Shown here: positions 19,208 to 24,695 of the stretch, in pieces
Numbering within the stretch: the stretch's first letter is position 1
Layout of the letters: each line of letters starts with the position of its first letter
NCBI RefSeq assembly: GCF_003334385.1
Contig: NZ_QOWN01000059.1
Source of the DNA: Escherichia coli
Lineage (GTDB): Bacteria > Pseudomonadota > Gammaproteobacteria > Enterobacterales > Enterobacteriaceae
Direction: 5' to 3' (one strand)
Length of the DNA: 27,104 nt
The notes under the pieces: generated by a model
Databases searched by the model: none
What the model saw: only the letters and a program-made list of their open reading frames with translations
Told to the model about the DNA's origin: nothing
Position numbers and translations under genes: made by a program

Positions 19208-19897
19208 TTAAATCTTTGTTCGCTGATAATCAGCAGAATCAATTAAATTATACATACCATTCATATCATGCTCATAATGATATTCAGATTCATACGAATA
19301 CCCCAATATACTCTCATAAGTCAAAACGACCCGAAAATGTTCAGGCACATCTCCAGCATTTATTTTATTTTTAGGAAATTTAATTGCGCCATTGCTACTT
19401 CTAAAAAAATGCGAGCTATATTCCCCGATAGGAGGGTCAAAAGTTAAGCTTATATTTTTCGCTGTTTTACCATCACTAAATACCGACCAATTATACTCAT
19501 ACTGTTCACCACTTTTAACTGACCATCCCAGATTCAACATATATAGATCAGGCTTCGTTTCTTTTTCTCTTTCCAGCCTTTCTGTCATGGCTTTGATTGA
19601 TTCATTTTCTAATTGCTGTTTAGAAACGGAAACCATCTCTTTATATTGTTCGACTGAGTTTTTCAACTCAGTGGCTTGTAACTTTAACGCTTCAGTATTT
19701 TGCTGTAGTTCTTTTTGTTGCTGTAAATACCCAAGCACAAGCCAAAAAAAGGCCACTGGGGAAAATGCACCAGCAAGAAAATCTCCAAACTCATTCCACG
19801 ACGTCATCTGGTTCAAATCAAGAACATGGATCGTAATACCTAAGCCAAAGAAATAAACGACACTAACTAAAACACCGCACCCAAAAATTCTCATCAT
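19208..19897 (-). CDS. Hypothetical membrane protein with coiled coil (moron)
   Basis: Visibly AT-rich ORF with two hydrophobic helices at the N-terminus, a coiled-coil stretch (QQQKELQQNTEALKLQATELKNSVEQYKEMV...) and a Tyr/Glu-rich C-terminal domain. Start placed at the ATG preceded by GGGGAGAGA; the track ORF extends to 19921. Confidence 0.55.
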   Translation of the reverse strand: MMRIFGCGVLVSVVYFFGLGITIHVLDLNQMTSWNEFGDFLAGAFSPVAFFWLVLGYLQQQKELQQNTEALKLQATELKNSVEQYKEMVSVSKQQLENESIKAMTERLEREKETKPDLYMLNLGWSVKSGEQYEYNWSVFSDGKTAKNISLTFDPPIGEYSSHFFRSSNGAIKFPKNKINAGDVPEHFRVVLTYESILGYSYESEYHYEHDMNGMYNLIDSADYQRTKI

Positions 19898-19945
19898 TCT
19901 CTCCCCATTTGGAGAAAACATTTAACAACTGTCAAATAGTCAAGG

Positions 19946-21337: not shown

Positions 21338-21371
21338 CCAGAAACGACAAAACCCGCTCAATGGCGGGTTT
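21338..21371 (-). terminator. Candidate tR'-type intrinsic terminator in the late leader
   Basis: On the minus strand: stem AAACCCGC, loop CAUUGA, stem GCGGGUUU, then UGUCGUUUC; about 70-100 nt downstream of the candidate late promoter and upstream of the holin. Confidence 0.4.
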
Positions 21372-21416
21372 AAGCTGTGTGGCGAAGTAACCACTCTTAA
21401 CATAATACAATACTTT

Positions 21417-21445
21417 TTGCGTACGCGTTAATAATTCTATATTAT
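21417..21445 (+). promoter_or_regulatory. Candidate sigma70 promoter of the ATPase-methyltransferase operon (TTGCGT-N17-TATTAT)
   Basis: Plus-strand hexamers at 21417-21422 and 21440-21445, about 30 nt upstream of the GTG start at 21476. Its -10 overlaps the -10 of the divergent late promoter. Confidence 0.35.
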
Positions 21446-21470
21446 ACAAGAAAAACAAGCTGGAAGACAA
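21441..21470 (-). promoter_or_regulatory. Candidate Q-dependent late promoter (pR'-like): TTGTCT-N18-TATAAT, with a second -10-like TAGAAT just downstream
   Basis: Minus-strand hexamers at 21465-21470 (-35) and 21441-21446 (-10), followed by an intrinsic terminator and then the lysis genes. Confidence 0.35.
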
Positions 21471-21475
21471 TTAAA

Positions 21476-23254
21476 GTGAGTGAAATCAGAAAGTTAAAAG
21501 GGCTAATGAATACAAATGCTATTGAGCCGTTCATTCGCCATATACGGTTTCCGTATTTTAAAAATCTTGAAGAATATAGCACTATACATTTTCACTATCC
21601 TATTACTGCATTAGTTGGTCAAAATGGAACCAATAAAAGCTCAGTATTACGTGCATTATATGGTTCTCCAAATAATTATTCCTTAGGAAATCTTTGGTTT
21701 TCAACTGATCTAGACGAGATTAAAGATGGTGGTCGTTCTAGATTTATTTATGGATACTATGATTCCGCATCTAAAGATGTTGTTGAAGTAATAAAAACAA
21801 GGATTGTAGACAAGGAGGATCCTGATTTATGGGAAACTTCGAGACCTCTAACTAAAGATGGTATGAAAAAAATACCAACAGATATTATTTCGCCAAATCA
21901 GCAAAAATCACGCTGGAAACAGATAGACAAAATTGTCACATATATTGATTTTAGAGCTTCGATCAGTGCATTCGATAAATTCTTTTATCATTCGGACTTT
22001 GATCTTTATCCAAAGAAAAATCACCTGAGAAAAAGAAGCCATCTTCTTAAAGAGATAATAGATAAAGGCCTAACATCATACAAGCCCTTTAAAGGTAAAA
22101 AAGAAAGGTTGTATAAGAATGAATTACTTTCTCAAGAGAAGGTAGAAATCATCAGCGATATACTTGGTAGACCTTACAAAACAATTAGACTTATTGAGCA
22201 TGCCTTATTTACAAACAATAAGGCTTCAACCGTTATTTTAGAGTCTCATAGTCTCAACTACTCCGAGGCTTTTGCAGGAAGTGGGGAGTTTGCAGTAACT
22301 ATTCTCGTAAATCAAATTGTTAACGCGCCAACAGCATCATTAATTCTTTTAGATGAACCCGAAGTCTCACTTCATCCAGCAGCACAGTTTAAATTGATGT
22401 CTTTTCTAAATAAGATTTGCTTAAAAAACAAACATCAAATTGTTATTTCAACACACTCATCATCTATAGTTAGCCAACTACCTAAGGAAGCCATAAAACT
22501 TTTTAATCTTAATTCAAACTCAGGAAAAGTTAGTATAGTTGAAAACGTTAGCCCTGAGGAAGCTTTCTTTACGCTTGGAGACCGACTATCAAAAAAAACT
22601 ATCTTTGTAGAAGATAAACTGGCTAAAAAATTCGTTGAGAAGGCTTTAAAATCAGGAGGTCCTGCCCTAGCCAATACATTTGATGTTATATATTGCCCAG
22701 CTGGTGCAAGCACATTATTAGGTAATATGATTGTCTCATTATTTTTATCAAGAGTTGATAATGCGGTATTTTTATTGGATGGTGATCAGAAGACAAGCCA
22801 TGATTTCATTACATCAGCCTTAATACCAAGCAGTGAAGATAATTCTTTAAATGAAAAAATAAAAAATATTCTTGGGTGTGAAATTAAAATACCAACTGAT
22901 GGGCATGGTGGAACTCCAAATAAACAGCAGAAGATTCAACTTCAGCGTGATTTCATTGATTTTTCATATAATTATGTAGGGTATTTACCTATCATTAATC
23001 CAGAAACTTTTTTGATTGACAATCTTCCGGCTTTTTACTCCGATATGATTAAAGATTTAAACTTATCAAAACTATCACCAAAATCAATAATTGCAGAAAT
23101 ATGTAAAAGAGACATAGAAAATAACGTTATAACTTCGGATGATATTTTCGCAACACAAATCAGGATACTAACCCGAATACCTGAGAATCATGTCGCATTT
23201 TCTGAAACGAGAGAAATGCTGAAATTTTTCCTTGAACATGGTAAGATAAGATAA
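21476..23254 (+). CDS. ABC-type ATPase with C-terminal TOPRIM-like nuclease domain (OLD/PARIS/Gabija-like architecture)
   Basis: 592-aa ORF. Walker A GQNGTNKSS (residues 48-56), Walker B LILLDEPE (289-296), H-loop ISTHS (324-328), then TOPRIM-like FVED (E379) and LLDGDQ (D435, D437). Visibly AT-rich. Start may be the GTG at 21476 or the ATG at 21506. Confidence 0.7.
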   Translation: MSEIRKLKGLMNTNAIEPFIRHIRFPYFKNLEEYSTIHFHYPITALVGQNGTNKSSVLRALYGSPNNYSLGNLWFSTDLDEIKDGGRSRFIYGYYDSASKDVVEVIKTRIVDKEDPDLWETSRPLTKDGMKKIPTDIISPNQQKSRWKQIDKIVTYIDFRASISAFDKFFYHSDFDLYPKKNHLRKRSHLLKEIIDKGLTSYKPFKGKKERLYKNELLSQEKVEIISDILGRPYKTIRLIEHALFTNNKASTVILESHSLNYSEAFAGSGEFAVTILVNQIVNAPTASLILLDEPEVSLHPAAQFKLMSFLNKICLKNKHQIVISTHSSSIVSQLPKEAIKLFNLNSNSGKVSIVENVSPEEAFFTLGDRLSKKTIFVEDKLAKKFVEKALKSGGPALANTFDVIYCPAGASTLLGNMIVSLFLSRVDNAVFLLDGDQKTSHDFITSALIPSSEDNSLNEKIKNILGCEIKIPTDGHGGTPNKQQKIQLQRDFIDFSYNYVGYLPIINPETFLIDNLPAFYSDMIKDLNLSKLSPKSIIAEICKRDIENNVITSDDIFATQIRILTRIPENHVAFSETREMLKFFLEHGKIR

Positions 23255-24338: not shown

Positions 24339-24695
24339 CTATAACATTGACATTACTCCCTCAACAAATCCCAAGGCGGATTGCAAATCCTTCCGGATAG
24401 TCCCGTCCGAACATTTCCGCTTCTTTGCAATTGTGCGGAGTGAAATACCTATAACAAAGTGAACAATGAGCAGCTCAAACTCATCTGGCTTATACTTTCG
24501 TAACCGAGCCACACAACTGTCTACCATAATACCTTCGTCATCATCACACTGAATCCGGGACTTTTTGCCATGAGGTAAAAGCCCCTTAAAGCCAGCGGCT
24601 ACCTGTTGCCAATCCACACCACTGTTTTCTGCCGCAGCCCATGCCCCCCAGCGGTCCAAAACTTCATACATATCACGCATCAACTTTCTCCACAA
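24339..24695 (-). CDS. Late gene antiterminator Q (QuuD/phage 82 type)
   Basis: 118-aa ORF resembling recalled E. coli QuuD (VLDRWGAWAA...AAGFKGLL...SRIQCDDDEGIMVDSCVARL...CSDGTIRKDL). Confidence 0.7.
   Translation of the reverse strand: MWRKLMRDMYEVLDRWGAWAAAENSGVDWQQVAAGFKGLLPHGKKSRIQCDDDEGIMVDSCVARLRKYKPDEFELLIVHFVIGISLRTIAKKRKCSDGTIRKDLQSALGFVEGVMSML

Follow-up and report, generated by a model that had tools for sequence, protein, structure and literature searches.

A C5 cytosine methyltransferase linked to an OLD-superfamily ABC-ATPase/TOPRIM nuclease in a lambdoid prophage of Escherichia coli

Nucleases of the OLD family are among the commonest building blocks of anti-phage defence (P2 Old, Gabija, PARIS, retron Eco8, HEC-04), and their triggers are still being worked out case by case. 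Class 1 of the family is defined as an isolated gene (PMC6755086, PMC10568477); the 2023 review of the OLD classes does not mention methyltransferases. According to one report, P2 Old senses DNA structures and cuts tRNA (bioRxiv 10.64898/2026.07.10.737580). GajA, the Class 2 enzyme of Gabija, is a nucleotide-gated, site-specific DNA-nicking enzyme (PMC8136825). HEC-04 is a single-gene ABC ATPase–TOPRIM defence protein found embedded in Hma systems, and its phage defence is lost with K62A or with E319A/D375A/D377A (bioRxiv 10.1101/2024.01.29.577857). It acts on several coliphages, T4 and T5 among them, and is homologous to IbfA of IncI plasmids (PMC12111858). Here, we describe a related nuclease gene and its methyltransferase partner in a stretch of 27,104 nucleotides of Escherichia coli DNA (contig NZ_QOWN01000059.1 of assembly GCF_003334385.1), called the window below. 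The two genes are:

21476..23254, plus strand: OLD-superfamily ABC-ATPase/TOPRIM nuclease gene, GTG start, 592 aa
23281..24315, plus strand: 344-aa C5 DNA cytosine methyltransferase, DNMT1/HgiDII-like, 26 bp downstream of the nuclease gene

The nuclease and the C5 methyltransferase form an obligate two-gene module, and this linkage, not a stand-alone nuclease, is the real finding. The first-pass annotation had described an OLD-like ATPase–TOPRIM protein with an unusual methyltransferase partner, a description borne out by the motifs, by Foldseek and by gene linkage. Relatives of the nuclease were fetched with their flanks from one genome per species and from IMG/VR, and all open reading frames (ORFs) were searched with the methyltransferase of the window:

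Genome contigs: 72 strong nuclease matches, with a methyltransferase adjacent in 46, within 5 kb in 19 and none in 7
Viral contigs: 68 strong nuclease matches, with a methyltransferase adjacent in 61, within 5 kb in 4 and none in 3

Combined, a C5 methyltransferase adjoins the nuclease gene in 107 of 140 loci and lies within 5 kb in 23 more (about 130 of 140). The 46 adjacent genes on genome contigs are downstream (26), upstream (18) or on the opposite strand (2). Among the 19 genome loci with the gene within 5 kb, 11 have strong matches and 8 a distant Dcm-like C5 methyltransferase 1–3 kb off; two of the latter were confirmed (L014 with NCBIfam TIGR00675, 2.2e-95; L048 with PADLOC MTase_II, 5.2e-117). 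The loci without a methyltransferase are at contig ends (five genome loci, one viral locus) or belong to a 27–30%-identical subfamily (two of each). In the main family, there is no intact, fully flanked nuclease gene without a methyltransferase.

The dependence was also counted from the side of the methyltransferase, with 80 IMG/VR relatives ranked by score. Those with at least 394 bits (about 53% identity) and with upstream sequence have the nuclease immediately upstream in 39 cases out of 39; below 394 bits, the nuclease is present in 0 of 40. The pair was also present in 4 of 4 genomes looked up (Hafnia, Massilia, Herbaspirillum, Klebsiella). Thus the methyltransferase partner, singled out at first as the distinguishing feature, is linked in about 130 of 140 loci seen from one gene and in 39 of 39 seen from the other. 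The pairwise identities of both proteins correlate over 43 loci (r = 0.66; 0 of 2000 Mantel permutations reach it). Judging from record titles, the hosts are Proteobacteria, Actinobacteria, Firmicutes, Bacteroidota, Nitrospirota, Patescibacteria, Planctomycetes, Verrucomicrobia and Melainabacteria, and the pair is found both in prophages and at ordinary chromosomal sites. Among 5426 complete E. coli genomes, the allele of the window occurs in 10 and a 60%-identical allele, in the same prophage slot, in 8, with both genes annotated intact throughout.

Such a distribution makes it hardly credible that the two genes are chance neighbours, that is, a stand-alone HEC-04/IbfA or Class 1 OLD abortive-infection gene beside an orphan anti-restriction methyltransferase of the phage. 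The linkage is two-way, in about 130 of 140 loci, in many phyla, inside and outside prophages, and the divergence of both genes is correlated. The top PADLOC match of the nuclease is indeed HEC-04, a single-gene system, and HEC-04 and IbfA defend alone; orphan phage methyltransferases are common, and methylase genes apart from the pair do occur (a separate N6-adenine methyltransferase gene in prophage L002, a large Dam/C5 methylase elsewhere in the Hafnia phage, L243). However, the HEC-04 profile covers only the ATPase/TOPRIM core (positions 154–385 of 494). Chance neighbourhood, or a stand-alone HEC-04 gene, was rejected on the two-way linkage.

The nuclease ORF contains an in-frame ATG at 21506, ten codons on from the GTG; starting there, as many gene callers do, the protein has 582 aa. 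In E. coli genomes with 100% identity, the ORF is annotated as ‘ATP-dependent nuclease’ WP_233706513.1 (PGAP); in E. coli WP4-S18-ESBL-08, where the region is 100% identical, the PGAP names of the two genes are ‘ATP-dependent nuclease’ and ‘DNA cytosine methyltransferase’. The 592-aa ORF and the motifs listed in the first-pass annotation were all found at the residue numbers given there. The family comprises 388 clusters (50% identity) below 1e-30, nearly all of about 580–630 aa. Conservation was counted in an alignment of 189 family representatives with 35–53% identity to the nuclease of the window; since the catalytic residues are invariant or nearly so in these relatives, the motifs are not due to chance. 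In the first half of the protein, the features are:

21527..22540, plus strand: ABC ATPase region, residues 18–355, from Pfam matches and the AlphaFold2 (AF2) model, with a conserved insert at residues 61–265
21617..21640, plus strand: Walker A GQNGTNKS, residues 48–55, with Asn53 in place of the canonical Gly
22274..22291, plus strand: ABC-signature-like AGSGEF, residues 267–272, with G270 and E271 invariant and S269 nearly so
22340..22378, plus strand: Walker B and D-loop LILLDEPEVSLHP, residues 289–301, with D293 and E294 invariant and H300 near-invariant
22445..22459, plus strand: H-loop ISTHS, residues 324–328, with H327 invariant

Pfam matches AAA_21 (1.4e-16), AAA_15 (4.1e-12) and SMC_N over residues 20–343 and nothing past residue 343. 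Sequence searches of the PDB, with the single sequence and with a profile, reach Thermus scotoductus (Ts) OLD, PtuA, AriA and Rad50, around Walker A/B only. The insert at 61–265 is matched by no PADLOC model. The invariant residues are G48, N50, G51, K54, G270, E271, D293, E294 and H327, and H300 in the D-loop is kept in 184 of 189 relatives; all the ABC ATPase motifs expected of the OLD superfamily are therefore invariant or nearly so. From Walker B (LLDEPE, residues 291–296), the D-loop His is at +7 and the H-loop His at +34, as compared with +7 and +33 in P2 Old, in which the Ala mutants of K37, D299, H306 and H332 are each inactive (PMC7049728).

With a complete motif set and P2 Old-like spacing, the ATPase is not degenerate. 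The first reading of ‘degenerate ABC motifs’ has therefore to be given up: K54, D293/E294, H300 and H327 are complete and OLD-typical. The Walker A variant noted then (GQNGTNKSS, residues 48–56, with N53 before K54) is real, and it is a variant of a clade. Position 53 is Asn in 133 of the 189 relatives and the canonical Gly in 50, and the split tracks both clade and operon architecture. Asn, like Gly, tolerates a left-handed backbone conformation, and for that reason Asn53 would stand in for Gly in the Walker A. Clades with Asn53 are almost all pure two-gene modules, while those with Gly53 include operons with extra restriction or GHKL genes. In the Asn53 clade of the window, the nuclease gene is directly followed by the methyltransferase gene in 38 of 40 loci, and none of the 40 matched the three extra nuclease/GHKL families screened.

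The second half of the protein carries the putative nuclease site:

22541..23251, plus strand: TOPRIM and helical (DUF4435-like) nuclease region, residues 356–592
22610..22615, plus strand: E379-D380 at the end of TOPRIM strand 1, metal-binding Glu, from conservation and the AF2 model
22778..22786, plus strand: D435-G436-D437 (DxD) at the end of TOPRIM strand 3, from conservation and the AF2 model
22988..23005, plus strand: P505..E510 after strand 4, candidate metal-B site, near-invariant, by analogy with Bp and Ts OLD
23081..23083, plus strand: K536, candidate catalytic lysine, in 187 of 189 relatives, by analogy with Bp K562 and P2 K550

E379 (in FVED, residues 377–380) and D435 (in LLDGDQ, residues 433–438) are 56 residues apart. 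E379, D380 and D435 are invariant, D437 is present in 188 of 189 relatives, and E510 and K536 in 187 of 189 each. The acidic triad E379/D435/D437 with a TOPRIM spacing, as first read from the sequence, is thus present and conserved. By position, it matches the metal-A triads of Ts OLD (E377/D431/D433), Bp OLD (E400/D455/D457), P2 Old (E398/D453/D455) and HEC-04 (E319/D375/D377). In Bp and Ts OLD, the metal-B analogues of P505..E510 are T506/E508 and S478/E480, respectively. We infer, from positions and not from a superposition, that D380, E510 and K536 are plausible equivalents of the OLD metal-B ligands and catalytic lysine.

The full-length AF2 model has a predicted local distance difference test of 86.8 and a predicted template modelling (TM) score of 0.62. 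Its strands at 374–378, 402–406, 430–434 and 501–503 lead, for the first, third and fourth, into E379-D380, D435-G-D437 and P505..E510, and a helical bundle runs from P505..E510 to the C-terminus. Against the PDB, Foldseek places Ts OLD (6p74) on top (2.1e-13), followed by GajA and the retron Eco8 OLD. A model of residues 356–592 most closely resembles OLD nucleases, AriB and a DUF4435 protein; against AFDB50, the same 237-aa model is found at the C-termini of many ‘AAA family ATPase’ proteins of about 600 aa (TM 0.75–0.95). The fold of residues 370–440 had been named beforehand as the test of the TOPRIM assignment, and the model and the Foldseek matches came out for TOPRIM.

The last 150 residues or so had been taken for a possible sensor or target-recognition domain. 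A separate domain finds no support: a DUF4435 protein of 260 aa, encoded on its own, is matched over the full length of the 237-aa model (TM 0.81), so that this part forms one structural unit with the TOPRIM, and it contains the near-invariant P505..E510 and K536. Because of the conserved Glu510 and Lys536, the last 150 residues are probably part of the catalytic region. They are also the most variable part of the nuclease (20% mean identity), and their co-variation with the methyltransferase does not exceed that of the other regions; they may yet have a role in specificity. In PADLOC and PHROGs, the C-terminus and the 61–265 insert give weak matches only, with the TOPRIM cores of HEC-04 and retron I-B and with phrog_3940 (unknown function). 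Taken alone, residues 356–592 match the HEC-04 TOPRIM core at 1.7e-4 and nothing else in PADLOC.

The methyltransferase matches TIGR00675 (4.9e-40). Its motifs I (FSGCGG), IV (PCQ), VI (ENV), VIII (QTRER) and X (GNAVPP) are all invariant in the family alignment. The best solved relatives are the DNMT1 catalytic domains (1e-38), with M.HaeIII and M.HhaI at only 1e-17 to 1e-13; this bacterial enzyme is therefore nearer to the eukaryotic DNMT1 catalytic domains than to M.HhaI or M.HaeIII. The alignment with DNMT1 spans the C-terminal part of the recognition domain, including the HPEQHR..SVRE region. In the nuclease-linked clade (E. coli, Tolumonas, Erwinia, Microbulbifer, Pseudomonas), the recognition region is the best conserved part of the methyltransferase (80–97%), which argues for one fixed target sequence for the clade across phyla. 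A Klebsiella homologue, 82% identical, is automatically named ‘Modification methylase HgiDII’. M.HgiDII methylates GTCGAC, which for the methyltransferase of the window is a lead and not a determination; the DNMT1-like recognition region and the automatic name are the only clues to its specificity.

We somewhat favour the view that the nuclease and the methyltransferase make a methylation-gated defence module of the restriction–modification (R-M) kind. The methyltransferase would mark lysogen and prophage DNA at a short, fixed site. The ATPase-nuclease would bind DNA via its ATPase heads, with ATP binding and hydrolysis gating the TOPRIM site, and would attack on meeting unmethylated DNA of an incoming phage or plasmid. 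Five observations speak for it: the two-way exclusivity, the co-divergence, the lack of another nuclease in the clade of the window, the conserved catalytic residues, and the mobile, low-G+C moron in which the genes lie. Protection of methylated DNA from the nuclease, DNA as the substrate and the mode of site reading are here inferred. The site could be read by the conserved ATPase insert (residues 61–265) or, as in Type III, by the methyltransferase acting as specificity subunit. Reading by the insert or a Type III-like complex would be favoured by the nuclease gene being first, by the tight or overlapping genes and by a hint, although a weak one, from co-variation, in which the insert tracks the recognition region of the methyltransferase most closely (r = 0.64 vs. 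about 0.5).

Several points weigh against an R-M-like module. The nuclease activity and the effect of methylation are predictions from sequence, structural models and gene linkage. P2 Old and AriB, of like architecture, cleave tRNA and not DNA (bioRxiv 10.64898/2026.07.10.737580; PMC12409363), so that the target of the effector could be RNA. No restriction-enzyme (REase_II) hidden Markov model (HMM) of PADLOC matches the nuclease, whole or in parts, and no recognisable DNA-reading domain was found in it. The nuclease gene leads the operon, in which no controller protein is encoded; a classical Type II system arriving in a new host would be ill served by such an order. Near-identical prophages are numerous among the viral loci, and the counts given above are counts of loci, not of independent events. 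Lastly, about 20 of 140 loci (Gly53 clades) have, between the methyltransferase gene and the OLD-like gene, either a classical Type II restriction enzyme (PDLC03563) or a BbrUII/HgiDII-family GHKL protein; the OLD-like protein may be an accessory in those operons, since it is not the sole nuclease there. Three kinds of larger, conserved m5C operon house distant OLD-like relatives:

L014, L018, L031, L043, L047, L048, L051, L057: (Vsr)–methyltransferase–Type II restriction enzyme–OLD-like operons
L017, L022, L036, L063: methyltransferase, GHKL ‘BbrUII/HgiDII family restriction enzyme’ (NF050001) and OLD-like gene
L032–L034, L040, L044, L066, L126: methyltransferase, 995-aa GHKL/histidine-kinase-like protein, 541-aa unknown protein and OLD-like gene

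The first kind, in 8 loci from five phyla, has a Dcm-like methyltransferase, the Type II restriction enzyme (PDLC03563, down to 7e-114) and the OLD-like gene, with a Vsr gene also in three of the operons (L031, L048, L051). In the 4 loci of the second, the NF050001 GHKL ATPase sits between or beside the methyltransferase and the OLD-like gene; the GHKL protein of L017 has a TIGR02391/HEPN-like tail. The 995-aa protein is present in all 7 loci of the third, 5 of which also have the protein of about 541 aa and of unknown function. The larger operons belong mostly to clades with the canonical Gly53, L126 being the Asn53 exception. From these operons, the common denominator of the family is the OLD-like protein with the m5C (5-methylcytosine) methyltransferase, and the extra nucleases are optional.

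The presence of the OLD-like gene beside m5C systems with a restriction enzyme of their own would also suit a back-up layer, in which the protein acts as a guard in the manner of PARIS. The ABC ATPase would monitor the methyltransferase, or the methylation and restriction machinery, and inhibition by a phage (through an anti-restriction protein, an S-adenosylmethionine hydrolase or the like) would free the TOPRIM against host tRNA or other RNA; the methyltransferase would then be a guarded bait and not a shield of self DNA. PARIS, made of the ABC ATPase AriA and the TOPRIM protein AriB, cleaves tRNA once the anti-restriction protein Ocr has set it off (PMC11464382, PMC12409363). P2 Old is a reported tRNase, and the HEC-04/IbfA relatives are abortive-infection-like and toxic on induction. 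We nevertheless hold a guard to be unlikely. The close methyltransferase clade never occurs without the nuclease (39/39), and such mutual dependence suits an R-M pair better than a guard, which would more likely join methyltransferases that are also found alone. In the clade of the window, moreover, the pair is alone with no restriction enzyme to back up, and no AriA/AriB HMM matches the C-terminal region of the nuclease.

The Vsr genes bear on another proposal, that the nuclease is a repair accessory, an analogue of Vsr or MutS that nicks the T:G mismatches left by deamination of 5-methylcytosine, as in the dcm–vsr pair of E. coli. Of the loci studied here, 19 have true Vsr homologues (1e-15 to 1e-39, with an E. 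coli Vsr sequence as the query), many of them directly adjoining the module (for example in L039, L040, L048 and L051); the niche is thus filled, and replacement of Vsr as the main explanation was rejected on this ground. The characterised relatives (P2 Old, GajA, HEC-04/IbfA, retron Eco8, AriB) are all defence or toxic nucleases, and the patchy occurrence (18 of 5426 E. coli genomes), the low G+C and the moron slot of a prophage are typical of defence cargo. On the other side, the nuclease gene is joined to C5 methyltransferases of more than one clade, with or without a restriction enzyme, as Vsr genes are, some related operons carry a MutL-like GHKL ATPase, and MutS is itself an ABC ATPase. 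On balance, a repair role is quite improbable.

The 27–30%-identical subfamily (L074, L075, L151, L152) has proteins of 547 aa with the canonical Gly in Walker A and no C5 methyltransferase. In L074 and L152, its gene is directly downstream of two ORFs, which in L074 match Hachiman HamB helicase and GmrSD/HEC-06-like proteins; in L074, a Type I methyltransferase gene follows downstream. This subfamily may be a defence-island relative, perhaps a bridge to HEC-04.

The window is an e14/P27-like lambdoid prophage of E. coli, in which the nuclease and methyltransferase genes are an island of 33% G+C in DNA of 50–58% G+C. The flanking genes, all on the minus strand, are holin–lysozyme–lysis on one side and a Q-family antiterminator, DUF968, KilA-N and RusA on the other. 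The Q gene (24339–24695, minus strand) is convergent with the cassette, which stops 23 bp from the Q stop codon, and the 2.9-kb cassette separates Q from a late-promoter-like site. The cassette would thus be a low-G+C moron placed between the Q gene and the late promoter/holin, on the strand opposite to the late genes. From this position, it should be expressed in the lysogen and could protect against superinfection. The promoter scan gave no plus-strand promoter upstream of the nuclease ORF; by eye, there is one possible candidate:

21417..21445, plus strand: possible weak sigma-70 promoter of the cassette, TTGCGT-17-TATTAT, below the scan threshold

On the minus strand, there are promoter-like sites at 21470–21441 (TTGTCT-18-TATAAT) and 21431–21402 (TTAACG-18-TATTAT), followed by a strong terminator-like hairpin at 21371–21350, just upstream of the holin gene. 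From its sequence, the stretch 21350–21470 (minus strand) looks like a lambdoid late promoter pR′ with the terminator tR′. It is the sole part of the query shared with the SfII, SfIV and Stx2 phages; in the phage GenBank collection, we observed no copy of the cassette, only this flanking pR′/tR′ region. In the prophages of E. coli C4 (L002), Hafnia (L243) and Klebsiella (L246), the slot between Q and holin holds divergent alleles of the cassette and, in Klebsiella, also a HicAB toxin–antitoxin pair. The slot behaves as a hot spot for morons and defence genes. In other lambdoid phages, Stx toxins fill it. Rfam gives nothing at E < 0.5 between 20500 and 25000.

Two other regions of the prophage are low in G+C. 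At 19208–19921 (minus strand), between an HNH endonuclease and the lysis genes, a 237-aa ORF of about 40% G+C with a hydrophobic N-terminus matches phrog_9267 (unknown function) and nothing in PADLOC; it is possibly another moron. At 6245–6775 (minus strand), a dip to 39% G+C coincides with a 176-aa ORF that matches phrog_5485 (unknown function) and, again, nothing in PADLOC.

The module has spread to eight phyla or more and turns up repeatedly in the Q–holin slot of enterobacterial lambdoid prophages; for E. coli genomics, it adds one more defence cargo to that slot. Current annotation and defence-finding tools would label the two genes ‘ATP-dependent nuclease’, or probably HEC-04, and ‘orphan’ methyltransferase, and under such labels the pairing and the likely self/non-self logic would be overlooked. 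If the R-M-like reading is right, R-M biology gains a new nuclease fold and a new type of motor. The folds of restriction nucleases include PD-(D/E)xK, HNH, GIY-YIG and PLD, and TOPRIM would join them; m5C at one site would be a tractable trigger with which to study how an ABC ATPase gates a TOPRIM. More tentatively, and here we are rather doubtful, the pair might represent a type of restriction enzyme that has not been classified before and, by genetic context, a fifth OLD class, in which an ABC-ATPase/TOPRIM protein restricts DNA that lacks the m5C mark of its DNMT1/HgiDII-like methyltransferase, perhaps a Type III-like specificity subunit. We found no description of an OLD–methyltransferase module in the literature on OLD, TOPRIM or ABC ATPases with methyltransferases; REBASE lay outside this scope and a prior description is possible.

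Among the known systems, the nearest by sequence is HEC-04/IbfA. The best PADLOC match of the nuclease is HEC-04 (PDLC04149, 1.1e-34), with residues 208–445 on profile positions 154–385 of 494, followed by the retron ATPase-Toprim_I-B (1.6e-27, shared core only) and then by the generic PtuA, AriA, GajA and Old ATPases. As in HEC-04 and in IbfA (plasmids R64, pUA1135), one polypeptide carries the ABC ATPase and then the TOPRIM, and the distance from Glu to DxD is 56 residues in both (E319/D375/D377 vs. E379/D435/D437). K62, the Walker A Lys of HEC-04, corresponds to K54, and HEC-04, the nearest relative with experimental data, needs both this Lys and the acidic triad for defence. However, HEC-04 and IbfA have about 494–518 aa and act alone, whereas the nuclease of the window has 592 aa, is longer by about 68 residues from Walker A to the TOPRIM Glu, and is essentially always paired with a C5 methyltransferase. 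The HEC-04 profile covers the core only, with the last 145 residues and the 61–265 insert unmatched in PADLOC. A plasmid search for IbfA-like relatives (tblastn) gave 13 distant matches, with IbfA not among them. With a partial profile match and an obligate methyltransferase partner, the protein does not fall within HEC-04/IbfA; by sequence, it is nearest to them yet outside the full-length HEC-04 profile.

Class 1 OLD (P2 Old and Ts OLD, 6p74) provides the best full-length structural match, with the D-loop and H-loop His, the metal-A triad of the TOPRIM and candidate residues at analogous metal-B and Lys positions, and P2 Old is also a prophage moron. The sequence similarity is, however, limited to about 60 residues around Walker B, and, unlike the stand-alone Class 1 genes, this gene has a C5 methyltransferase adjoining or nearby in about 130 of 140 loci. 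GajA (Class 2) shares the ABC ATPase with TOPRIM (Foldseek E of 4.8e-13 to 1e-10), and its site-specific nicking shows that an OLD enzyme can cleave DNA at defined sequences; the neighbours in the window are holin, methyltransferase and Q, with no UvrD/PcrA-like GajB helicase. For Class 3, the retron I-B effectors, neither a reverse transcriptase gene nor an Rfam match to a non-coding RNA is present. With PARIS, split or fused, the AriA HMMs match the ATPase only (2.4e-17), no AriB model matches residues 356–592, and the similarity to AriB/DUF4435 is purely structural; PARIS responds to Ocr and has no linked methyltransferase.

NCBIfam TIGR04435, ‘restriction system-associated AAA ATPase’, gives the nuclease 32.5 bits against a cut-off of 300, and the protein falls in no recognised restriction-enzyme family (no REase_II HMM). 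As in R-M systems, the nuclease and methyltransferase genes are linked and co-inherited. The likeness is to Type III and Type I, where an ATP-using nuclease subunit also stands beside a methyltransferase and depends on it, in tight or overlapping gene pairs that are mobile and phage-borne (EcoP1I on phage P1 is a phage-borne Type III system). Res and HsdR differ in combining a superfamily 2 (SF2) helicase with PD-(D/E)xK, and their methyltransferases are N6-adenine enzymes; the pair of the window has a predicted ABC ATPase motor, a TOPRIM nuclease and a C5-cytosine methyltransferase. With its complete ABC ATPase motifs and a TOPRIM that bears the Glu after strand 1 and the DxD after strand 3, the nuclease belongs to the OLD superfamily in its architecture, its fold and its motifs.

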